Shown here piece after piece: positions 1 to 25,010 of a DNA stretch of 64,000 nt. Within the stretch, counting starts at the first letter, position 1. The number at the start of each line of letters is the position of its first letter. The stretch comes from an uncultured Methanosarcinales archaeon. GTDB lineage: Archaea > Nanobdellota > Nanobdellia > Woesearchaeales > UBA12501. The stretch lies in contig CAYWPA010000001.1 in the NCBI GenBank assembly GCA_964459835.1, positions 110,957 through 174,956 on the forward strand, read 5' to 3'. The position numbers and the translations under genes are program-made. The notes under the pieces are model-generated. The model saw only the letters and a list, made by a program, of their open reading frames with translations, had not been told where the DNA came from and made no database searches.

Positions 1-909
1 GCAACATTGGCTGATATGGGCGGAAAGATTTACTCAATAGAGCTTTCTTATCCTGGGAAAAAGTTCAAACCCCCAAACTTAGAGCCGACAAAGATGAAGA
101 TAAGTTTAGACTATGTGAACAAGATACTTGGCCTTTGCTTGAATGAGAAGCAGCTGGAAGTTTTGCTGGAAAAAATGGGATATGGGTATGAAAAAGGCTT
201 TGTTCTGGTGCCTGCCTACAGGGCAGACATTCTTCATCAGATTGATTTTGTAGAGGATATTGCAATTGCTTATGGATATGAAAATTTCAAGGCAGAGCTA
301 GTTCATGTCGCAACAACAGGAGAAGAGGATAAATTCGAGAAGTTCAAGAATAAGGTTGTGTCTATGCTAATCGGCCTTGGCATGCTTGAGCTGAACACAT
401 ACGACCTAATTGATAGGGATTTACAGACAAAAAAGATGCTTGCTGAGTTTGATGTTATTGAGATAGCTGACCCTGTTTCCCTTGAGTATAACTCGCTAAG
501 ATACTGGATGATTCCTTCTTTGCTTAATGTCTTAAAGGAAAACAAGCATAATGAATATCCTCAAAGGATTTTTGATATTGGGAGGGTGTTCAAGAAAGAC
601 CCTTCACAAGAGACCAAAATAGCAGAGGCAGAAAGATTGGGAGTGCTAAGCTGCCATCTGAAAGCAGACTTTACAGAGGCAAGGCAGATCCTTGATTTTC
701 TTTTCAGGGCTTTAGGTATTGAATACAAAATTGTTGAAGCAGAGCATCCAAGCTTTATTGCAGGAAGGGTTGGAAGGGTAATGGTTGGAAAGGAAAAGAT
801 TGCTTACATCGGCGAATTACATCCGGAAGTCCTTAACAACTTTGAGTTGGATAAGCCTGTTGTGGGGTTCGAATTAAACCTGACGGAGCTGTATAGGGTT
901 ATTTTTTAG
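1..909 (+). CDS. pheT: Phenylalanyl-tRNA synthetase beta subunit, C-terminal part (5' truncated by window edge)
   Basis: Translation shows the archaeal PheT B5/core-like C-terminal region (…GFVLVPAYRADILHQIDFVEDIAIAYGYENF…GRVGRVMVGKEKIAYIGELHPEVL…). The ORF runs to the window start with no upstream stop. Confidence 0.7.
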   Translation, partial: ATLADMGGKIYSIELSYPGKKFKPPNLEPTKMKISLDYVNKILGLCLNEKQLEVLLEKMGYGYEKGFVLVPAYRADILHQIDFVEDIAIAYGYENFKAELVHVATTGEEDKFEKFKNKVVSMLIGLGMLELNTYDLIDRDLQTKKMLAEFDVIEIADPVSLEYNSLRYWMIPSLLNVLKENKHNEYPQRIFDIGRVFKKDPSQETKIAEAERLGVLSCHLKADFTEARQILDFLFRALGIEYKIVEAEHPSFIAGRVGRVMVGKEKIAYIGELHPEVLNNFELDKPVVGFELNLTELYRVIF

Positions 910-923
910 GCTGTTTCTCTGAA

Positions 924-1772
924 CTAATGCTTCGGATTGACAGTGAAGTAGCTGTTGAACTTGAACATTTCAAAGAATATGCCAAGCAATAATCCGATGA
1001 TTTGGATTGCTGTTCTTATAATAATAAAAATTACAAAGAAAAATACTGAAATGTTGGCTAAAAGCGATGTTGTTCCAAAGACAGCAGAAATTGCCCCCAA
1101 AAGCAGCGAAATGATAACGATAGTGAAGAATGTTGCCAAAACATGCGGCAGGTTTGATTTAAAATACCTAAACGATTCTGTAACAATTTGGACGGCATGC
1201 TTTCTCTCCATAATGCTTACGATTTGGTTTACAAAGAAAAGTGAAAGGCTTATGTAGATTGCATAGGCAATGTATGCTATCCCTAATATTATTCCTAAAA
1301 ATATTGCTGCAGGCTTTGAGAATGATGATATGGTGAATAATACAAGAAAAGCAACCAACAAAGGAGCTATGTAAAGCATTATTTTTATAAGAGCTATATT
1401 AAGATAAAGCAGAAAAAGCCTTTTTCCATGGTGAAGCATTTTCTTTGCTGTTGTTTTTCCTGTGTCGATGATGTCTTTGAACATGCCAATATACATTGCC
1501 CTTACATATGATGTTATCAAAATAAAAAGAAATATATCAAATACAAGCAAAAGTGATGCTGTTGCTATGATATTAACTGATGTGAAAAAAGAAGCAAAGT
1601 CTGGCTTTGCTGTGTTGAAGAATATCAAACCGGCAACAACAAACTGCAAAAGCATAAACAGCAAGAGTATACAGCTTAAGCCTATTGAAATAAGCAACGG
1701 AACAATAAGAACTGGGTTTTCTTTGAAATCATCTAAGCTGTGCCTTAAAAGTTTTATATAATCAGGCTTCAT
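924..1772 (-). CDS. Polytopic integral membrane protein, function unknown
   Basis: 282-aa ORF, highly hydrophobic with about 8 predicted TM helices; no recognisable catalytic motif. Confidence 0.45.
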   Translation of the reverse strand: MKPDYIKLLRHSLDDFKENPVLIVPLLISIGLSCILLLFMLLQFVVAGLIFFNTAKPDFASFFTSVNIIATASLLLVFDIFLFILITSYVRAMYIGMFKDIIDTGKTTAKKMLHHGKRLFLLYLNIALIKIMLYIAPLLVAFLVLFTISSFSKPAAIFLGIILGIAYIAYAIYISLSLFFVNQIVSIMERKHAVQIVTESFRYFKSNLPHVLATFFTIVIISLLLGAISAVFGTTSLLANISVFFFVIFIIIRTAIQIIGLLLGIFFEMFKFNSYFTVNPKH

Positions 1773-6102: not shown

Positions 6103-7308
6103 ATGGAGCAGCTATATGATTTATTTCAGAAGTATATCAAAAACGAGCCTATTTTTAACGATAAAAAAGTTCTGCAGGCAAACCACACACCTGAAATCAT
6201 CACCCATAGGGAAAGGGAAATAGAGCAAATAGGCAAAGCTCTTGCTCCTGCTTTAAGGCAGCAAAAGCCATCAAACTTATTTTTATACGGCAAAACAGGA
6301 ACAGGCAAGACACTGTCTGCACTCTACACAACAAAAAAGCTGAAAGAGATTGCAGAAAAAGAAAAAATACCTTTGAATGTCATATACATAAACTGCAAGC
6401 TCAAAAAACAGGCAGATACAGAGTACAGGCTAGTAGCGCAGATAGCAAGAGCTTTAGGGAAAACAATCCCAATAACAGGCCTTCCTACTGATGAGGTTTA
6501 CAAAACTTTTTTTGAGGCAATTGACCAGAAAGAGCATGTTTTTATTTTGATACTGGATGAGATAGATCAATTGGTGAAAAAAACAGGCGATGAGATTCTT
6601 TATAATCTGACAAGAATAAACTCAGAATTAAAAAAAGCACAGGTCTGCATTGTTGGCATATCAAATGACCTGATTTTTACTGAAAATCTAGACCCAAGGG
6701 TAAAATCATCTTTGTCAGAAGAAGAAATTATTTTTCAGCCTTACAATGCAATGCATCTGCAGGATATTTTGAGGGAAAGATCCAAAAGAGCGTTTAAGGA
6801 AAACGTTCTTGAGCATGGTGTTATAGAAAAATGCGCAGCATATGCAGCAAGAGAGCATGGAGATGCAAGAAGAGCTTTGGAGCTTTTGAGGGTTGCAGGA
6901 GAATTGGCAGAAAGGGAAGGCTTGGAAAAGGTTGAAATCAAGCATATAGATGAGGCAGAGGACAAAATAGAAAAGGAGCGTGTATTTGATATTGTACTGC
7001 TGCAGCCAAAGCAGTTTCAGCTGACACTTTACTCTATATTAACACTCCACAAAAAAACAAAAGGCACAATCTTCACAGGGGATGTTTACGAAATCTACGA
7101 AAGCCTCTGCAAAAAGACATCAGTAAGACCATTGACCCAGAGAAGGATATCAGATATAGTTGCAGAGCTTGATATGCTCGGCATAATAAATGCAAGGACC
7201 ATATCAAAAGGAAGGTATGGGAGAACAAGGGAGATAAGCGTTGCAATACAGCACTCAATCGAGGAAAAAATAAAGGAAGCTTTGGAAAAAGACCTAGGAC
7301 TGATATGA
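6103..7308 (+). CDS. cdc6: Orc1/Cdc6 replication initiator
   Basis: Walker A (LYGKTGTGKT) and Walker B (ILILDEID) in an AAA+ fold, plus a C-terminal winged helix; 401 aa. Confidence 0.9.
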   Translation: MEQLYDLFQKYIKNEPIFNDKKVLQANHTPEIITHREREIEQIGKALAPALRQQKPSNLFLYGKTGTGKTLSALYTTKKLKEIAEKEKIPLNVIYINCKLKKQADTEYRLVAQIARALGKTIPITGLPTDEVYKTFFEAIDQKEHVFILILDEIDQLVKKTGDEILYNLTRINSELKKAQVCIVGISNDLIFTENLDPRVKSSLSEEEIIFQPYNAMHLQDILRERSKRAFKENVLEHGVIEKCAAYAAREHGDARRALELLRVAGELAEREGLEKVEIKHIDEAEDKIEKERVFDIVLLQPKQFQLTLYSILTLHKKTKGTIFTGDVYEIYESLCKKTSVRPLTQRRISDIVAELDMLGIINARTISKGRYGRTREISVAIQHSIEEKIKEALEKDLGLI

Positions 7309-8915
7309 TGCAGGAAACATTAACAAAAAAAAGAATAATTGATTTCTTTTTAGACAAAGGAATATTGCTAAGCAGCGACTTTGTTGATAGCCTTCAGCAG
7401 GACATCAATCTAGACAGCTTCTATGATTTTCTAAAGTCAAAAGTTGGCGAAGACTTTTTGGTTTTCAACAAAGACGTTGTAGGCCTTCTTAACACAAATG
7501 AAAAAATAGACCTGAACTGGAAAGACTTTGAAAAGATGAAGGCGTTGCAGGAAAACGGCGAAAACCCTTATTTATACTATGATTTTATCAACAGGCAGCA
7601 GCAAAAAGATGAAAAAGAAGAAGTTTCAGGTGAGCAAGGAACTGTTGTTATGAAGGCTCTTTACAAAACAAAAGAAAAAAAGTTTGAAACAAAAGATTTT
7701 GTTGCGCACTTCAACAAAAGGTTCGAAGCTTTAAAAAAACTGCTTCAAAACAGGCAGGAGCTTCAAAACACAACATCGATAAACAGGCTCTCCTCAAAGG
7801 CAGAAAGAAGCAAAGTTTCAATTATAGGGATTGTTCTGGAAAAAAACGAGACTGCAAATGGCAACATCCTTCTTTCACTTGAAGACCCAACTGGAGTTAT
7901 TAATGTTCTTGCAAACAAAAATAATCCAGAGATTTACAATATGGGCAAAGAAATAGTGCTTGATGAGGTGATAGGCTTGACAGGCACTTTAGGAAACAAA
8001 ATTATATTCGCAGACAGCATACTTTTTCCAGACATTCCGATAAACTCAGAGATGAAAAAATCCGAGGATGAGGTATATGCTATCTTTCTTTCAGATATAC
8101 ATTTTGGAAGCACCAAATTTCTGCATGAAGAGTTCGGCAGGTTTATCAAATGGATTAATGGAGAGCTCGGCAGCGAAAAGCAGCAAAACATAGCAAAGAA
8201 AGTCAAGTATGTATTTGTAGTAGGCGATATGGTTGACGGGATAGGGGTTTACCAGGGTCAGGAAAAGGAATTAACAATAAAAGATATCTCTGAGCAATAC
8301 ACAGATGCAGCAAATTGGCTGAAAAAAATTCCAAAAGACAAGAAAATAATTATTTGCCCCGGTAATCACGACGCAATGAGAATATCAGAGCCTCAGCCAC
8401 TGATAGATAAGAATTATGCAAAAGACCTCTATACAATGGAAAATGTAATAATGGTTACTAATCCAGCACTGATAAACATTCATTCTTCTGAAAAATTTTC
8501 AGGAATCGATGTATTAATGTATCACGGGTATAGCTACGACCATTATGCAGCAAATGTTGATAGCATAAGGGAAAAAGGAGGGTATGACAGGGCAGACCTT
8601 ATCATGAAATTTCTTTTGCAAAGAAGGCACCTAGCGCCTACCCATTCATCTTCGCTATATATTCCTGACCCTGAAAAAGACAGCTTGGTTATCGAAACAA
8701 TACCAGATATCTTTGTCAGCGGCCATATCCATAAAGCAGCAGTTAAAAACTACAGGAATGTAACAACTATTTCAAGCAGCTGCTGGCAGGCCAAAACCTC
8801 TTTCCAGGAGAAAGTAGGCCATCATCCAGAGCCCGCAAGGCTGCCAATAGTCAATCTGCAAACAAGGGAAGTTAAAATTATGAGGTTTGACAGCCCGGAA
8901 AATGAAGGAAAATGA
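7305..8915 (+). CDS. polD1: DNA polymerase II (PolD) small subunit DP1
   Basis: Calcineurin-like phosphoesterase motifs (FLSDIHFGS, VVGDMVDG, PGNHDA, GHIH) after an OB-fold N-terminus. Its ATGA start overlaps the cdc6 stop. Confidence 0.85.
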   Translation: MMQETLTKKRIIDFFLDKGILLSSDFVDSLQQDINLDSFYDFLKSKVGEDFLVFNKDVVGLLNTNEKIDLNWKDFEKMKALQENGENPYLYYDFINRQQQKDEKEEVSGEQGTVVMKALYKTKEKKFETKDFVAHFNKRFEALKKLLQNRQELQNTTSINRLSSKAERSKVSIIGIVLEKNETANGNILLSLEDPTGVINVLANKNNPEIYNMGKEIVLDEVIGLTGTLGNKIIFADSILFPDIPINSEMKKSEDEVYAIFLSDIHFGSTKFLHEEFGRFIKWINGELGSEKQQNIAKKVKYVFVVGDMVDGIGVYQGQEKELTIKDISEQYTDAANWLKKIPKDKKIIICPGNHDAMRISEPQPLIDKNYAKDLYTMENVIMVTNPALINIHSSEKFSGIDVLMYHGYSYDHYAANVDSIREKGGYDRADLIMKFLLQRRHLAPTHSSSLYIPDPEKDSLVIETIPDIFVSGHIHKAAVKNYRNVTTISSSCWQAKTSFQEKVGHHPEPARLPIVNLQTREVKIMRFDSPENEGK

Positions 8916-18115: not shown

Positions 18116-18169
18116 ATTTTTGACAATCACAAAAGCTTTAAATACCTTCTGCCATCACTTTTTCCTTGC

Positions 18170-18320
18170 GGGGACGTAGTATAACCTGGCTAGAATGGCT
18201 GGCTCCAGTTATGGAGCGATGAGCTGCAGAACACTGTAGCGATGATTGCAGCTATGGTCTGTTGAGGCGTTGCTTCAAAGAAGAGACCAGCAGATGGGGG
18301 TTCAAATCCCTCCGTCCCCA
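18170..18320 (+). tRNA. trnW: tRNA-Trp (anticodon CCA) with a 77-nt intron (18209-18285) at the canonical 37/38 position
   Basis: Acceptor stem GGGGACG/CGTCCCC with discriminator A; U8 A9 G10; D-loop AACCTGGCTA. Anticodon stem GCTGG (18198-18202)/CCAGC (18287-18291); loop C-U33-CCA-G37. T-arm GGGGG-TTCAAAT-CCCTC. A TATA-like ctttaaatacc lies ~30 bp upstream and a T-tract follows the 3' end. The D-stem is weak (G10-U25, A12·A23). Confidence 0.6.
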
Positions 18321-18334
18321 GTTTTTTTAGAATC

Positions 18335-21300
18335 TTACTTCAGCCTGATTTTGGTGTTAGTCTTTTTTTCGTCTTTTTCCTGCAGCTTTTCCTCAGGCTT
18401 TTTACTTCCCAGCACAACTTTCTTGATTTTCTTTTCAGGGTATTTTTTTGCTTCAGCGCTTTCAGCAGGCTTTTCCTCAACACTTTTAACTTTTGCCTTA
18501 GGCATCCTTGCCCATTTCTTCGGATCCTGCTTGAACAACACTAAAACAAGAACTATCAAAGCTACTGAGCCGGAAGCTGCGTAGAATAAATAAGGATAAA
18601 CTCTGCTCCACAAGTCTTTTTTTGAAATCTTTACAACAATTTCCTTTCTAAAGCTCTTTCCAGGATCTGTGCCAATATCAACATTGATTTTATACAGGCC
18701 ATTCTTTACATCTTTGTTTGGTGTTATAAGCAGCCCTAATTCATTGCTTTGCCCAGGCTCAACTCTTATCTTTTCCTGTACAGGCCTTATCCAGCTTACC
18801 TCTTCCAAATTGACATTTATTTCAAATGCCTCATTGTTGTTTTTATTTATAATATTTAAAGGGATAATTGTTTCTTCGCTGACCTCAACAATATCCTGCC
18901 CTGCAATTTCTATGTCGCTTTCATTTAGCTCTTCAACACTGACCTCTCCTTCAAGCGGCTCAGCAGGCTCAGCTACATTCAGATAATCAAACATATAAGC
19001 TCCAAATATAAATCCGCATACAATCAGCAAAACAATTAAAACAGCTGAAGGCGTCTTCATCCTGTTCCACATAGCAGACATATCTTTCTTTGGCTTTGTT
19101 TCTTTTGATATCTCTCTCTTTGCCTCACTTATCTTTGGCTTGACTGCCTTTTCCGTAATTATTTTGTCTTCTCCAGCCTTTCTAAGCACAATTTTCTTTT
19201 TGTCAAACAAATATATAATCCCTAAAATAACAGCAAGTGAAACTATTCCAACTGCGGGCCAGAACCATATATTATCCCATAGTTTTCTGCCTTTTACAAC
19301 CTCAACAGGAATCTCTTGTCTGAACTCATCCCCTGCTTCAGTTGCAATTGTCAGTATAATCTTATATCTTCCTTCATTTATGCTGTCATCAGGATGCACA
19401 ACAACAACTATCACATCTTCATAAAACGGCTCTAATGCTGTTTCTTCCTTTACAGTGCTTATCCATCCTTCTAATTTTCCAACCCTAAAAGTATTTTGCT
19501 GGCCGTTGTTCGTTATGACGACAGGTACAAAAGTATCCTCGTCATCCATGGCCTGTATATAGCCACCCCTCAAATCCAGATTGCTTTTATCAACCCACAA
19601 ATTGATGTCCTTTCCAGGCTCAACAACTACAACATCTTCTTCAAAGAAAGAAATATTAGGCAGGCTTACAATCTGCTGCTCTGCTATCTTGGGCCCGAAG
19701 AGCAAGCCAAGCGCAGCCAATATCAAAACAGCAATCACTATTGCCGCAATGATAACGCTTCTTTTGTTTATGTTAAATCTCTTTTCTTTTTTTATCTTCT
19801 TATCTTCAATTCCCAAAGGAATTATCTTTGGCACCACAGCTTTTATTTTCTCTAAAGTAGGCCTTTCAAAGCTTATCAGGCCCGGCTTTGTTTTTTCCAC
19901 ACCACCTTTGCGTCCTTTTCTTTTCCATCCAAGAACAAATAATATGCACATTATAAACACAAATGCTGCAAGCAATGCTACAATTATATAGTCCATTGTT
20001 GAGTACACTCTTTCTTCTTTACCGCTTTCTATATTTTCTGTATCAATATCTTCTGTAATTTCTCCAAACTCCAAATCTTCTTCGCTTATTCCAAGCTCAT
20101 CCAATTCTTCATCATCTTCTCCAAACCATATATCTGTTTTATTCTCTACTGCATCAGCAGTATTTTCAATCATGTTTGTAAAGAAAGCAACATAGCCTAT
20201 TCCTGCAAGCAGCAGCAATATAAGAGCTGTAATCCCTAATATCTTCATTGGCTTCTTGAACTTTCCCCAGCTTGTATAATATCTTAGCCTGTGCCAGAAG
20301 AAGCTTCTTTCTTTAGCAGGCTTTGCTGTTGTACCTTTTCTTTTCTTAACTGCTCTCATAATTCCCCACACAGCCAATGCAATCACAATTAACCCTCCAG
20401 CAGCTGCGCTTGCATAAACAGGAAGCAGGCTTTCTTCAGCAAGGCCTTCTTCTACTGTCAGGTTTGCCTCTGTCTCAAGCTGCGCAATGTTCAGATAATC
20501 CAAATAGTATAATCCACCCACTACTCCAATTATCAGCAAAATAACCAGTACTGGTATTATCATTCTCCATACAGATCTCTTTTCAGGCCTTTGTGAAGCA
20601 ATGTATTTTCCCTCTTTCAATGCCTGCTGCTCTTTTCTTAGCTTGAAAATCTCCTCTTTTAGGCTGATTAGCTCTGCACTTTCAACATTTGCTGCAGCCT
20701 CAGCCCTTTCTTTTCTTGCTCTTGGAACAATGCCAACAATACCCTTTCTTTCCTTTATGCTTCTTGTCAGTTTGATTCCACCCAACGCAATCATACCGAG
20801 CAAAACAAGAGCAAGAACAATTGCTCCTGCAACCTTAACAGCAAACATTAAGGGGGAAACAGAAACTATTTCCAAAAATAAATCCTGCTTAATCGCATTC
20901 TGGAGAACAGGGCTTGTCGCTACCGCTTCAATTATGTATATGTCTCCATCAATTACTGTCTCATCAGGCTCTGCGATGAGTGAAATGCTTCCTTTTTCTC
21001 CAGGAAGTACGTCAATCTTTTCATCAGCTTCAAGCCATGGAAGGTCCTCATTTATTGCCAGGCTGTATACAAATCTTTCATCAGGATTTTCAATGCTTAC
21101 AGAAAAGTTTGATACTTCATCGATTTGGATTTTTACCATATCATCTTTTACACTTGCCCCTTCTACAGTAATCAGCCCTTCTCCATTCTCAATAGCTATC
21201 TCATCAAGAATATCAGTATCTTCAAGACCACCAAGATCTTCTAATGCCTTATTACCAACAAGCTGCTGGTTAACCAAGTATGCAACTCCTCCTATTGCAA

Positions 21301-23149
21301 GCACAACAAGAAGGATTACTCCTATAAGCAGCGGCCATCTTATGCTGCTTATATCAACCTTTAGATTCTTTTCATCCATGTGCTTTTTCTGGTATTTTTC
21401 TAAAATAGGGGACTTTGAAGACCTGTAGAAAGTCCTTAGGCCTCCTTCATCATATCTTTCTTTAAGGAAAATTATTACCATTATTATAACGACAATAGCA
21501 ATTATGCCAAACACAATCGCAAGCATGTCATTTGTATCATTTTTTTCTAAAATCTTTTCTAATTCTGCTGTCTCTTCGTCTGTGTCACAAACCCCATTGC
21601 TGTTTTCATCAAGGCAGCATTCTCCAACCCTGAATTCAATATAAGGCAATTTGCATACATCAGCATCTGTTATTTCATTTACATCAGCTCCGCTAATAGT
21701 GTATGCAGTTGTCGCATTGCGTGTTCCAATCACTCCTCCTTCTGCAGTGTACAATAAGCTTGCTCCAAGCCCCAAAACAAATAGAACAATTAAAATAAGC
21801 ATGCTGAGGTATTTCCAGGTATTGTCTCCTGCTGCCCCCTTTACATCTGCAGCCTCTTTTGCTTGAGCTGATTGCGTTTCAACTGTCTGTGAATAAAATG
21901 CTTCTGTAGGCTGGTTGTAATAAACATGCTCTGCTGGCTGTATTATCTTCCTTCCTTTTTTATCATGCGTGCTTTTGAAATATACAATAAATCCTAAAGC
22001 CAAAACACCAAGAAGAACAAAAGCGCCAATTGTCATAAGGACTGTTTTCAGCAAATCATCTCCGCTTCCGGAATCTGCTGTCTCTTCTGCAACAGGTCCA
22101 GGAGTTCCAGGTGTAGGAATTACAGAAACAGAAGATGCTACGCAGCTTAGGACATTTGCAGTAAAGTTGTAGTCTTTTATCATATCGCCTCTAGTTGTCT
22201 GCCCTCTCACAAGCATTGGGTAATTCCCTGCCGGAACCTTCGGCTGCAAATTGTACTCAAATGTGCTGGCCTTGTTTCCATCAAGGGCAACACCATCATA
22301 AGTGAATACTGTGCCTCCGACATTTATTCCCAAAATATAGCTGTTTGAAGGCTGGGCATTATTTTTTATGGTGAAGCTTACCGTATTGTCCTTGTCATTG
22401 CACAGATTATATTCTTTTTGTCCGAGGATATCAAACTCGTAGCATTGGTTAATGTTCAAAGAAAAAGGAACTTCTGCTGTAACTCCTGAATTCTGCGCTT
22501 GCACAAACAGTGTAAAATCATGCTTTCCATAAACATCACAAGGCTTGTTTACAAAAACAAAAAGCTTTTTTATCTGGCCTGGTGAAAGTGCAAATACTGC
22601 TTCTGAAACCTTGATATGCTCTACAGGATCAATCCCAATAGTAAATGTTTCAATATGGTTTCCATTGTTTGAGATTTCAAACTCAAATGTTTTTGGCGTA
22701 CATGGGCAAGCTGATTGCTCAGCAGGAGAAATCTGGCTCACTCCGATATTATTGCAGGCAGCAACATTAATGTCTTGTATGACCTGCTTTGTATTGCCGA
22801 ACTTTGTCTTGGCTTCTGTAATCAGCTCATACTTTCCCTGCGCAGAACAGGGAATGTTCAGGAAACTAAAGATATCTGACTTTTCTCCAGGCTCGAGGAT
22901 TAGCTGATTGGGAGCTATTGTAGCCCATTTTGCAGCGTTTCCGCCAACATAAACTTGGTAAGTGCTTGTTACGTCACCTGTATTAGCTAAATTAAACAAA
23001 TTCTTAGTATTTGAGCAAGAACAGACTGAAAGAACATTATTTTGGCTAAAAAAGCTAAAATCTTCCTTTAAAGCGTTTATAGGGGTTAATGTAGCTATAA
23101 AAAGCAGTACAAAGGCTAAAAAACTAACTACTTTGCTTTTACCACTCAT
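18335..23149 (-). CDS. Giant (~1600 aa) surface/membrane protein: Sec signal peptide, N-terminal Ig/CARDB-like beta domains, then many TM helices alternating with Lys/Glu-rich coiled-coil segments
   Basis: Single long ORF. Signal peptide MSGKSKVVSFLAFVLLFIATLTPINA. More than 10 hydrophobic helices are spaced by charged KE-rich stretches, ending in a KE-rich tail. Start chosen at the signal-peptide Met. Confidence 0.6.
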   Translation of the reverse strand: MSGKSKVVSFLAFVLLFIATLTPINALKEDFSFFSQNNVLSVCSCSNTKNLFNLANTGDVTSTYQVYVGGNAAKWATIAPNQLILEPGEKSDIFSFLNIPCSAQGKYELITEAKTKFGNTKQVIQDINVAACNNIGVSQISPAEQSACPCTPKTFEFEISNNGNHIETFTIGIDPVEHIKVSEAVFALSPGQIKKLFVFVNKPCDVYGKHDFTLFVQAQNSGVTAEVPFSLNINQCYEFDILGQKEYNLCNDKDNTVSFTIKNNAQPSNSYILGINVGGTVFTYDGVALDGNKASTFEYNLQPKVPAGNYPMLVRGQTTRGDMIKDYNFTANVLSCVASSVSVIPTPGTPGPVAEETADSGSGDDLLKTVLMTIGAFVLLGVLALGFIVYFKSTHDKKGRKIIQPAEHVYYNQPTEAFYSQTVETQSAQAKEAADVKGAAGDNTWKYLSMLILIVLFVLGLGASLLYTAEGGVIGTRNATTAYTISGADVNEITDADVCKLPYIEFRVGECCLDENSNGVCDTDEETAELEKILEKNDTNDMLAIVFGIIAIVVIIMVIIFLKERYDEGGLRTFYRSSKSPILEKYQKKHMDEKNLKVDISSIRWPLLIGVILLVVLAIGGVAYLVNQQLVGNKALEDLGGLEDTDILDEIAIENGEGLITVEGASVKDDMVKIQIDEVSNFSVSIENPDERFVYSLAINEDLPWLEADEKIDVLPGEKGSISLIAEPDETVIDGDIYIIEAVATSPVLQNAIKQDLFLEIVSVSPLMFAVKVAGAIVLALVLLGMIALGGIKLTRSIKERKGIVGIVPRARKERAEAAANVESAELISLKEEIFKLRKEQQALKEGKYIASQRPEKRSVWRMIIPVLVILLIIGVVGGLYYLDYLNIAQLETEANLTVEEGLAEESLLPVYASAAAGGLIVIALAVWGIMRAVKKRKGTTAKPAKERSFFWHRLRYYTSWGKFKKPMKILGITALILLLLAGIGYVAFFTNMIENTADAVENKTDIWFGEDDEELDELGISEEDLEFGEITEDIDTENIESGKEERVYSTMDYIIVALLAAFVFIMCILFVLGWKRKGRKGGVEKTKPGLISFERPTLEKIKAVVPKIIPLGIEDKKIKKEKRFNINKRSVIIAAIVIAVLILAALGLLFGPKIAEQQIVSLPNISFFEEDVVVVEPGKDINLWVDKSNLDLRGGYIQAMDDEDTFVPVVITNNGQQNTFRVGKLEGWISTVKEETALEPFYEDVIVVVVHPDDSINEGRYKIILTIATEAGDEFRQEIPVEVVKGRKLWDNIWFWPAVGIVSLAVILGIIYLFDKKKIVLRKAGEDKIITEKAVKPKISEAKREISKETKPKKDMSAMWNRMKTPSAVLIVLLIVCGFIFGAYMFDYLNVAEPAEPLEGEVSVEELNESDIEIAGQDIVEVSEETIIPLNIINKNNNEAFEINVNLEEVSWIRPVQEKIRVEPGQSNELGLLITPNKDVKNGLYKINVDIGTDPGKSFRKEIVVKISKKDLWSRVYPYLFYAASGSVALIVLVLVLFKQDPKKWARMPKAKVKSVEEKPAESAEAKKYPEKKIKKVVLGSKKPEEKLQEKDEKKTNTKIRLK

Positions 23150-23276
23150 GGTCGATATCCCAAATTTATTACTCTGGAAGTACACTTTGTTATATAAAGG
23201 TTATGGTATTTTTCGTTGTATAACGTTTGTATAAGCTTGGACAAGCTTTATATACTTTAATTATGGATTTTTTATC

Positions 23277-24095: not shown

Positions 24096-25010
24096 ATGGC
24101 AATACAATTACTGGTTGAGCAGGAAAAAGAAATAAATCAAAAAGAAGCAGAAGAAATTGAAAATTTTGATACTGAAAAGTTCGAGCAGAATATACAAAAA
24201 ACAATAGAAACATACAACCTGTTCACAAAAAAAGACAAGGTTCTTGTTGCGTGCAGCGGAGGGAAGGACTCAACTGTAACTTTATTTATTCTGAAAAAGC
24301 TAGGATATAATGTAGAGGCAATCACAGTAGACGCGCACATCGGATGCTATACAAAAGACAACCTTGAAAGGTTAAGAAAGCTCTGCACAGACATTGGTGT
24401 AAAGCTGTATGAAGTCCCTTTCAGGGAGAAGGTCGGAAAATCCCTTTGCTATATACAATCAGTCTTGAAATCAAAAGGCCATTACTTCAAGTCATGCCAT
24501 ACTTGCGGTGTACTGCGAAGATATCTTCTTAACATGGAAGCAAGGAAAATACAGCCTGACGTCATAGTAACTGGCCATAATATGGATGATGAAGCTCAGT
24601 CTACTTTAATGAATCTATTCAGGAACAATATGGAAGTTGCTGCAAGGCTCGGGCCAAAGACAGGATTAAAGGAAGACAGCAAGTTTGTGCCAAGGGCAAA
24701 GCCATTGTATTTTACACGGGAAAAAGACGTGATCCTTTACTCAAAGGCAAAAGAATTTCATGTCAAATATGGAGCATGCCCATGCTCAGTAGATTCTTAC
24801 AGAAGAGAAGTAAGGAATATATTCAGCTTTATTGAAGGAAAATATCCTGATGCGCAGGAAAAAATAATCAGCTCTTTCATGAAGATGCTTCCGAAGCTGA
24901 GGAAGCAATATTCAACAATGGACGAAATAAAGCACTGCGAAAAATGCGGTGAGCCATCTTCAAGGGATATTTGCAATACGTGCAGTTTGCTGGATAAGAT
25001 AAGAAGCTAA
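24096..25010 (+). CDS. PP-loop ATPase of the TtuA/NcsA/TtcA tRNA-thiolation family
   Basis: PP-loop SGGKDS, with flanking Cys clusters (CHTCG… and C-terminal CEKCGEP…CNTC). Confidence 0.7.
   Translation: MAIQLLVEQEKEINQKEAEEIENFDTEKFEQNIQKTIETYNLFTKKDKVLVACSGGKDSTVTLFILKKLGYNVEAITVDAHIGCYTKDNLERLRKLCTDIGVKLYEVPFREKVGKSLCYIQSVLKSKGHYFKSCHTCGVLRRYLLNMEARKIQPDVIVTGHNMDDEAQSTLMNLFRNNMEVAARLGPKTGLKEDSKFVPRAKPLYFTREKDVILYSKAKEFHVKYGACPCSVDSYRREVRNIFSFIEGKYPDAQEKIISSFMKMLPKLRKQYSTMDEIKHCEKCGEPSSRDICNTCSLLDKIRS

Follow-up and report, generated by a model that had tools for sequence, protein, structure and literature searches.

A tRNA-Trp intron in a Woesearchaeota genome as a probable circularly permuted box C/D guide for its own C34

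Can an archaeal tRNA-Trp intron whose guide-like motifs stand in an unfamiliar order direct 2'-O-methylation of the tRNA that it interrupts? The question is raised by a tRNA-Trp gene at positions 18170-18320 of a 64,000-nucleotide (nt) stretch of contig CAYWPA010000001.1 (assembly GCA_964459835.1), which we refer to as the window and whose positions are used throughout. An initial annotation had proposed that the 77-nt intron of this gene carries box-like motifs and antisense elements positioned at C34 and C39. Based on our analysis, we put a probability of about 0.72 on the reading that the intron is a circularly permuted box C/D guide for C34 of its own tRNA, and perhaps for C39 too.

The gene, which like all features of the tRNA locus lies on the forward strand, is spanned end to end by the Rfam tRNA model RF00005 (18170-18320, 42.1 bits vs. 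a gathering score of 29), with model positions 1-71 matched and an 81-nt insertion within the anticodon loop. Reading the tRNA numbering by hand places the anticodon CCA at 18205-18207, G37 at 18208, A38 at 18286 and C39 at 18287. The 5' exon (positions 1-37, 18170-18208) thereby includes the target C34 at 18205, and the 3' exon (positions 38-73, 18286-18320) includes the candidate target C39 and the discriminator A at 18320. Between them lies a 77-nt intron of the bulge-helix-bulge (BHB) type at the canonical 37/38 site (18209-18285), whose residues we number so that ik = 18208 + k, and 18 other unique sequences from its subfamily have homologous introns. The score and the reading of the sequence together bear out the initial assignment to tRNA-Trp(CCA). 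ARAGORN does not report a tRNA at this locus, presumably because of the long intron. Homologues of the window's MCM protein, at 63-71% identity, are named Woesearchaeota or Nanoarchaeota, and to judge by these names the host is therefore a DPANN archaeon (Woesearchaeota), not a euryarchaeon; its G+C content is about 39%.

For comparison, we leveraged two scans. The metagenome scan, which selected on the 5' exon only, returned 119 contigs with an identical 5' exon and thus 119 Woesearchaeota-type tRNA-Trp genes, and because no other part of the gene entered the selection this sample is unbiased regarding the intron. Twenty of these genes have no intron at 37/38 and two are truncated; in at least 86 of the remaining 97 we found the same core of guide, box D, hairpin and box C. 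Covariation was calculated over 90 unique introns with this core, and finer comparisons used an alignment of 18 sequences (A1) representing the window's own subfamily. The genome scan used a pattern of anticodon loop, gap, T-arm and CCCCA and gave at least 120 matches. About 100 of the 120 matches listed are archaeal tRNA-Trp genes with introns of 52-81 nt, and about 19 of the 120, being false positives or parse failures, were dropped by an anticodon-stem test. Taxa among the matches listed include Archaeoglobi, Thermococci, Thermoplasmata, Hadesarchaea, Bathyarchaeia, Nitrososphaeria, a Thorarchaeote, Micrarchaeota, Undinarchaeota, Nanoarchaeia and Woesearchaeota. A broad pattern run on viral contigs returned mostly bacterial tandem tRNAs and tmRNAs.

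The first element of interest is the guide for C34. Intron residues i4-i9 (UGGAGC) are complementary to G31-A36 of the 5' exon, with G6 (18214) facing C34, and this G is the fifth nucleotide upstream (N+5) of an AUGA motif (i11-14, 18219-18222); the guide segment as a whole, UGGAGCG (i4-i10, 18212-18218), is invariant in A1. AUGA, a variant box D, is followed by hairpin 1 (i15-21 paired with i26-32, loop AACA; 18223-18240), a 7-base-pair (bp) stem with a counterpart, of variable length, in all 90 relatives, and then by a 3-nt bulge (G33 A34 U35) overlapping a variant box C, AUGAUUG (i34-40), the two together occupying 18241-18248. In the predicted kink-turn, AUGA would be the non-bulged strand and hairpin 1 the C-stem, with tandem sheared pairs G36.A14 and A37.G13, a U38.U12 pair, and U39-A11 replacing the usual G-C. 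Every position by which a box C/D small RNA (sRNA) kink-turn is recognized (C-stem, 3-nt bulge, tandem sheared G.A pairs, U.U, closing pair) is present, so that box D, hairpin 1 and box C are predicted to form exactly a complete box C/D kink-turn. The target position expected of such guides, the fifth base pair upstream of box D or D', is found at both C34 and C39, each within a 6-bp duplex.

The intron contains AGCGATGA twice, at 18215-18222 (i7-14) and 18238-18245 (i30-37). The initial annotation had taken copies of AGCGAUGA for a box C/C' pair, an assignment we abandon: the first copy is, on the fold above, the end of the guide plus box D, and the second is the end of hairpin 1 plus the 3-nt bulge and box C. 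A further reading, with the GCGAUGA copies taken for C and C' and CUGU (i26-29) for D', was ruled out, that region being the 3' strand of a covarying hairpin.

Conservation across the 90 unique introns follows this module closely. The box stands at N+5 from the C34-pairing G in 90 of 90, despite two intervening nucleotides that vary, and the linker from the 5' splice site to the guide ranges from 2 to 39 nt. Box D is spelled ATGA in 65 introns, TTGA in 5, ACGA in 5, CTGA in 4 and otherwise more rarely, with GA at its positions 3-4 in 87 of 90, and the bulge (L1-3) reads GAU or AAU in 79, followed by an invariant GA. The first position of box D and the sixth of box C (D1 and C6) covary, with A:U in 59 of 77 cases, C:G in 6 of 8 and U:A in 5 of 5; overall the two are paired in 70 of 90 introns vs. 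53 expected, a level reached in 0 of 20,000 shuffles. Where D2 is C, C5 is also C (6/6). The guide nucleotide opposite exon position 31 likewise tracks the exon, being C in 71 of 75 introns facing G31 and A or G, never C, in 14 of 15 facing C31. Hairpin 1 varies in sequence and length (9-20 nt) over these relatives, with loops often of the GNRA or UUCG type, and in A1 98.4% of its cells are paired and both partners have changed in two of the pairs.

The same D1:C6 rule was observed in canonical-order introns (CUGA with C6=G in 11/11, AUGA with C6=U in 9/9), and AUGA is for this reason an established D-box variant of tRNA-Trp intron guides. Classical intron guides also end in the unit UGGAGCG plus NUGA, with CUGA in the Archaeoglobus type and AUGA in the Thermoplasmata type. 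Both the C34 geometry of the initial annotation and its view of AUGA as a non-consensus box D stand up to this comparison, and we consider the proposed C34 guide well supported by conservation and covariation.

To gauge chance, we shuffled the intron 50,000 times (Altschul-Erickson) and scored antisense matches of at least 6 bp with NUGA at N+5. The criterion was reached by 1.2-1.9% of shuffled introns for C34 and 0.5-0.8% for C39, two correlated tests, since both targets contain CCAG (C34-G37, 18205-18208; C39-G42, 18287-18290). A single antisense CUGG could address either site. The sequence of this one intron leaves room for a chance origin, and it is the comparative data that provide the stronger argument and decide.

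What sets this intron apart is the order of its parts. Introns of the classical Archaeoglobus type run from box C (RUGAUGA) through the guide for position 39 (ending in CGGGUCUG), D' (CUGA), C' (UGAUGA), the guide for position 34 (ending in UUGGAGCG) and D (CUGA) to CCCGAAGAG directly before A38. The window intron instead runs guide 34, D, hairpin, C, guide 39, D', a rearrangement that had escaped the initial annotation, and the linear order C-D'-C'-D of a box C/D sRNA is not found in it. Hairpin 1 corresponds to the terminal stem closed by a loop, and in its predicted architecture the window intron is the classical tRNA-Trp intron guide (Rfam sR3) in circularly permuted form. When a profile of canonical introns was run against doubled introns that mimic circles, it aligned across the junction in canonical order for some relatives, L244 among them (hmm 6-61, 14.6 bits), and we regard this test as weak support for homology by permutation.

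The tRNA-Trp intron guides Cm34 and Um39 in Haloferax volcanii and Pyrococcus (PMC7994747, PMC4090602), and with this classical guide (RF01133 sR3; Pyrococcus sR50; Haloferax volcanii) the window intron shares the gene, the 37/38 site, targets 34 and 39, the N+5 register, the cores UGGAGCG and GGUCUG each before NUGA, the GAAGAG end before A38, and the need to refold between guide and BHB conformers (PMC7994747, PMC4090602). It differs from the classical order C-g39-D'-C'-g34-D in running D-[hairpin]-C-g39-D', in its loop-closed terminal stem, in its boxes (AUGA, AUGAUUG and UUGA, with no clear C'), in having C rather than U at position 39, and in its DPANN host. Its C34 guide lies directly against the 5' splice site, so that the duplex is 6 bp instead of about 10. 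The assignment of guides to positions in H. volcanii follows what Singh et al. reportedly described in 2004, together with the sequences compared here.

The second element, for C39, is plausible yet ambiguous, and weaker than the first. Downstream of box C, a 13-nt spacer (18249-18261) carries the antisense UGGUCU (i47-52, 18255-18260), which complements intron residues A76-G77 and exon residues A38-C39-C40-A41 across the 3' splice junction. Opposite C39 stands G49 (18257), at the fifth position 5' of UUGA (i54-57, 18262-18265), a candidate box D'; this is the geometry that had been proposed, and it is present in the sequence and kept in 19 unique introns (the window and 18 relatives). UUGA occurs in 16 of the 18 sequences of A1, the exceptions being UCGA (L241) and UAGA (L249), with GA kept throughout, and canonical archaea have CUGA at the D' position 32 times. 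In A1, 88% of the junction-helix cells are paired (i47:41 is UA in 11, CG in 2 and AU in 1), and we take the helix to be real because its pairing recurs with compensatory changes in sister subfamilies (GGUGC with GC/ACC and GGUAU with AU/ACC, the slash marking the junction).

The candidate box D' also forms part of hairpin 2 (i54-60 paired with i64-70; 18262-18278), which is paired in 94.4% of A1 cells. The lower stem of this hairpin is flipped between subfamilies, from UUGA..UCAA to UCAA..UUGA, a sign that hairpin 2 is a true Watson-Crick hairpin. The sole C' candidate is GAAGA (i72-76, 18280-18284), which would require a 5-nt bulge or a circularised intron; GAAGA is invariant in A1, and this conservation cannot discriminate a C' role because the BHB also constrains the segment. 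The earlier proposal of a C39 guide therefore holds for the junction helix, which covaries, and falters at UUGA, which is restricted to a single subfamily, base-paired in a covarying hairpin and without an evident C' partner. We accordingly rate a functional C39 guide as tentative, somewhat short of even odds. One relative from the window's subfamily (L189) has lost both boxes (GGGAGCGGGAGC... and CAAUGCC) and retains both hairpins as well as GGAAGAG, and may be a copy that has decayed naturally.

Splicing calls for a different fold. In the modelled BHB, G72-G75 of the GAAGA segment form the central helix with C35-C32, flanked by bulges of 3 nt each (A36-G37-U1 and A76-G77-A38); the motif is a relaxed rather than a strict BHB. 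Within A1, the central pairs C32-G75, U33-A74 and C35-G72 are each present in 18 of 18 sequences and the C34.A73 mismatch is invariant; this mismatch and the GAAGAG intron end before A38 are common to canonical archaeal tRNA-Trp introns. Helix h is the anticodon stem, which is 96.7% paired across A1 with three pairs changed on both sides. Helix h' joins i2-i9 with i71-i64, pairing the released C34 guide GGAGC with GCUUC (i64-68); it is 86% paired, and i2:i71 covaries (UG 7, UA 4, CG 2, AU 1). The calculated fold energies are -52.0 kcal/mol for the cloverleaf constrained to carry the BHB, -49.1 kcal/mol for a hand-drawn guide conformer and -63.3 kcal/mol for the unconstrained minimum free energy structure, which contains both guide-target helices. 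In these models, the pre-tRNA seems to act as a switch with two states, one folded for guiding and the other for splicing. A similar two-fold refolding is said to have been proposed for the classical pre-tRNA-Trp by Clouet-d'Orval in 2001 and Bortolin in 2003. The initial annotation had named the absence of a BHB-competent fold, an intron sequence that is not kept in relatives, and a predictor placing the anticodon or intron elsewhere as grounds for giving it up; a relaxed BHB and conserved introns were found, and none of these grounds was encountered.

Under the permuted-guide reading, the following sequence of events may be proposed. The D-guide UGGAGCG at the start of the intron would pair with G31-A36 of the 5' exon, and box D (AUGA), the 7-bp hairpin that replaces the terminal stem, the 3-nt bulge and box C (AUGAUUG) would build a kink-turn that binds L7Ae and recruits Nop5-fibrillarin. 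C34, at the fifth base pair from box D, would become Cm34. The 13-nt spacer downstream of box C would pair over the 3' splice junction with C39 fifth from UUGA, and this element would either guide Cm39 or just keep the 3' strand of the anticodon stem open for the C34 duplex. The RNA would then refold, with the anticodon stem forming, C32-C35 pairing with GAAG (i72-75) and the released guide pairing with GCUUC (i64-68), and the splicing endonuclease would cut at the relaxed BHB. That L7Ae, Nop5 and fibrillarin bind, that methylation takes place, in which order the events occur and whether the guide works in cis or in trans are points that we infer from the sequence.

A variant of this scheme places guiding after splicing. 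In Haloferax and Sulfolobus, tRNA-Trp introns form stable circles once excised (PMC3326292), and the window intron may be a double guide that must be spliced out and circularised, in the manner of RtcB, before it is a complete C/D sRNA in canonical order. With G77 joined to U1, GAAGA, within a C' box AAGAAGA, would lie 11 nt upstream of box D with the C34 guide between them, giving the circle the order C'-g34-D-[closed stem]-C-g39-D'. We consider this improbable; if it were true, Woesearchaeales would use splicing to assemble a trans-acting guide, and the permuted gene would be a fossil of a circular-RNA intermediate re-entering the genome.

Several observations weigh against a permuted guide at this locus. 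The C34 duplex has only 6 bp and closes a 4-nt loop in cis, compared with about 10 bp in classical introns such as L044. No Rfam C/D family, RF01133 and RF00095 included, matches the window intron even at E<=10, and the canonical intron L044, run as a control, scores 66.3 bits on RF01133 ("sR3") and 27 bits on RF00095 (snoPyro_CD). From the doubled window intron, the canonical-intron profile recovers the guide and D segment only. The 37/38 intron is absent from 20 of the 119 related genes, so the element is dispensable in some lineages. At the second site, UUGA at N+5 is confined to the window's subfamily, with UCAA, UCGC and UCCG in the sisters, whose junction helix persists in the absence of a D'-like box; UUGA forms Watson-Crick pairs within hairpin 2, which covaries between subfamilies; and within the intron we found no convincing C' partner for UUGA and no C' in kink-turn register. 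Finally, motif searches and tblastn found no L7Ae, Nop5 or fibrillarin in the 64-kb window. All three serve as single-copy marker genes taken to be universal among archaea (PMC9258230), and the host genome presumably encodes them.

It is close to an even proposition that the C34 module is active and the C39 element a relic, in which case UUGA would be a strand of hairpin 2, the junction helix would open the anticodon stem, and only Cm34 would be made. The flipping of UUGA/UCAA to UCAA/UUGA in sister subfamilies fits such a Watson-Crick hairpin, as does the lack of a C' in kink-turn register (use of G72A73 would need a 5-nt bulge), and the shortest relatives, with introns of 41-50 nt, carry a standard C34 module alone. 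Such a relic would not be expected, however, to have U, C or A at position 2 of the box with no matching change on the facing strand while GA stays invariant, which is D-box-like behavior within the window's subfamily; the box is moreover located exactly where canonical introns have CUGA, and the 13-nt spacer from C to D' is near the archaeal norm of about 12.

An unlikely explanation is that the intron guides no methylation at all and acts by structure, with the kink-turn hairpin binding L7Ae and the antisense helices masking the anticodon and timing or assisting splicing. Sister subfamilies without a D'-like box keep a compensated junction helix, which gives at least this helix a role apart from guiding; at 6 bp the guide duplex is short, the guide and BHB conformers are mutually exclusive and of similar stability, as expected of a folding switch, and intronless alleles exist. 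Structure alone nevertheless leaves unexplained why N+5 is invariant in 90 unique introns when anything from 2 to 39 nt separates the guide from the splice site, and why UGGAGCG plus NUGA is identical to the proven D-guide and box D of canonical introns. Harder still to credit is that a canonical C/D intron is decaying here and now does nothing except undergo splicing. The non-consensus boxes, the missing Rfam C/D match, the visible loss of both boxes in L189 and the intronless alleles would all suit decay, yet 90 unique introns retain the core and show compensatory changes at D1:C6 as well as within the hairpin, a pattern that indicates purifying selection on structure, not decay. We therefore prefer the permuted guide for C34, with its extension to C39 held at the lower strength given above.

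Permuted C/D sRNA genes have a precedent. In Nanoarchaeum equitans, a member of the same broad lineage (Nanoarchaeota sensu GTDB / DPANN), sRNA24 has a permuted box order and demonstrates that such genes exist and are expressed (PMC3491384). That RNA is free-standing, lies beside a split protein gene and is said to need circularisation to restore its box order (PMC3491384); the window guide, in contrast, sits in a tRNA intron, and its main kink-turn would form locally without circularisation. The 66-nt tRNA-Met intron of N. equitans, by its description (PMC3491384), is alike in having a box D, a degenerate mid-intron box C and a strong hairpin; it belongs to another tRNA, and its target is not established in that paper. 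The 65-nt tRNA-Trp intron of Sulfolobus solfataricus has two 7-bp complementarities to positions 34 and 39 and forms a stable circle without consensus C/D boxes (PMC3326292), whereas the window intron has an identifiable and covarying D/C kink-turn. The module also resembles the C'/D' K-loop of archaeal C/D sRNAs, in which a D-type box lies 5' of a C-type box across a short connector, with the difference that the window's connector is a stable 7-bp stem serving as the C-stem of a full kink-turn; the flanking guides, moreover, are swapped relative to the K-loop of canonical tRNA-Trp introns, guide 34 lying upstream and guide 39 downstream. A full-text literature search found no published permuted, hairpin-closed C/D guide in a tRNA-Trp intron, nor this element in Woesearchaeota.

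We also observed further box orders among the introns compared. Four Hadesarchaea introns (L064, L065, L072, L109) read g39-CUGA-loop-GAUGAUGA-g34 without terminal C and D boxes, three from Micrarchaeota (L038, L047, L063) read AUGA-hairpin-AAUGAUGA followed by the C34 antisense, and another (L111) reads g34-CUGA-g39-UUGA-hairpin-GAUGAUA. In these predicted architectures, the two antisense elements are constant across clades and the boxes move. In many Woesearchaeota-type tRNA-Trp genes, the 37/38 intron is accompanied by a second one in the T-arm, which lies within the T-stem/T-loop or immediately after it (L154, L169, L171-L173, L175, L176, L198, L201, L209, L216, L222, L224, L232, L243, L263-L265).

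On the contigs of two other DPANN archaea, guide proteins lie near tRNA-Trp: fibrillarin and Nop5 are encoded at 6340-7026 and 7051-7962 (both minus strand), about 4 kb from tRNA-Trp, in a Micrarchaeota contig (L087), and a fibrillarin homologue is encoded at 305-949 (minus strand) near tRNA-Trp in a second contig (L045). With a Micrarchaeota fibrillarin as seed, no Woesearchaeota-named match appeared among the best 120, which is uninformative. A regular-expression search found no canonical C/D sRNAs elsewhere in the window.

Upstream of the gene lies a promoter-like element (18131-18144) consisting of an A-rich transcription factor B recognition element (BRE; AAAAGC) and the TATA-like TTTAAATA (18137-18144), about 26-33 nt upstream of the mature tRNA 5' end, which from position and consensus we take to be an archaeal promoter. 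A run of seven T directly 3' of the gene (18322-18328) is a likely terminator, and together these elements would frame tRNA-Trp as an independent archaeal transcription unit. The D-stem of the tRNA (18179-18196) is weak, consisting of G10.U25, U11-A24, an A12.A23 mismatch and U13.G22, and the same D-arm sequence occurs in Woesearchaeota-type matches of the genome scan, a region outside the selecting pattern. A 112-amino-acid open reading frame overlapping the tRNA gene (18246-18584) was set aside as spurious.

The neighboring genes are ordinary, encoding MCM, TBP, a DUF192 protein, a VTT/DedA membrane protein, an alpha/beta hydrolase and a PP-loop ATPase. No tRNA was found at the MCM loci on relatives' contigs, and tRNA-Trp is not syntenic at 67-69% MCM identity. 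Adjoining the tRNA terminator is a gene for a 1616-amino-acid Lys/Glu-rich multi-pass membrane protein (18335-23185, minus strand) with weak matches to DUF2207_C and FixG_C Ig-like domains, and one relative (L003) has a large protein resembling it beside the MCM region. The PP-loop ATPase (24096-25010, plus strand), 6 kb downstream, has a C-terminal zinc ribbon and matches to ATP_bind_3, the tRNA_Me_trans HUP domain and ThiI, and is possibly a tRNA thiolation enzyme.

If the permuted-guide reading is right, intron-encoded guiding of Cm34 and of 2'-O-methylation at position 39 in tRNA-Trp, described so far for a few Euryarchaeota, would extend to DPANN archaea in a permuted form. Judging from the introns gathered here, this architecture is widespread in Woesearchaeales, and it is missed by standard models (Rfam, ARAGORN). 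AUGA and AUGAUU represent a co-evolving D/C pair that provides natural covariation evidence for the C6:D1 contact of the kink-turn, and the tRNA-Trp intron appears to have been rebuilt in several box orders across archaea with the same two antisense elements kept. The locus may offer a natural C/D guide of a "single-hairpin" kind, compact at about 40 nt, and with it a search pattern for permuted guides in other genomes.

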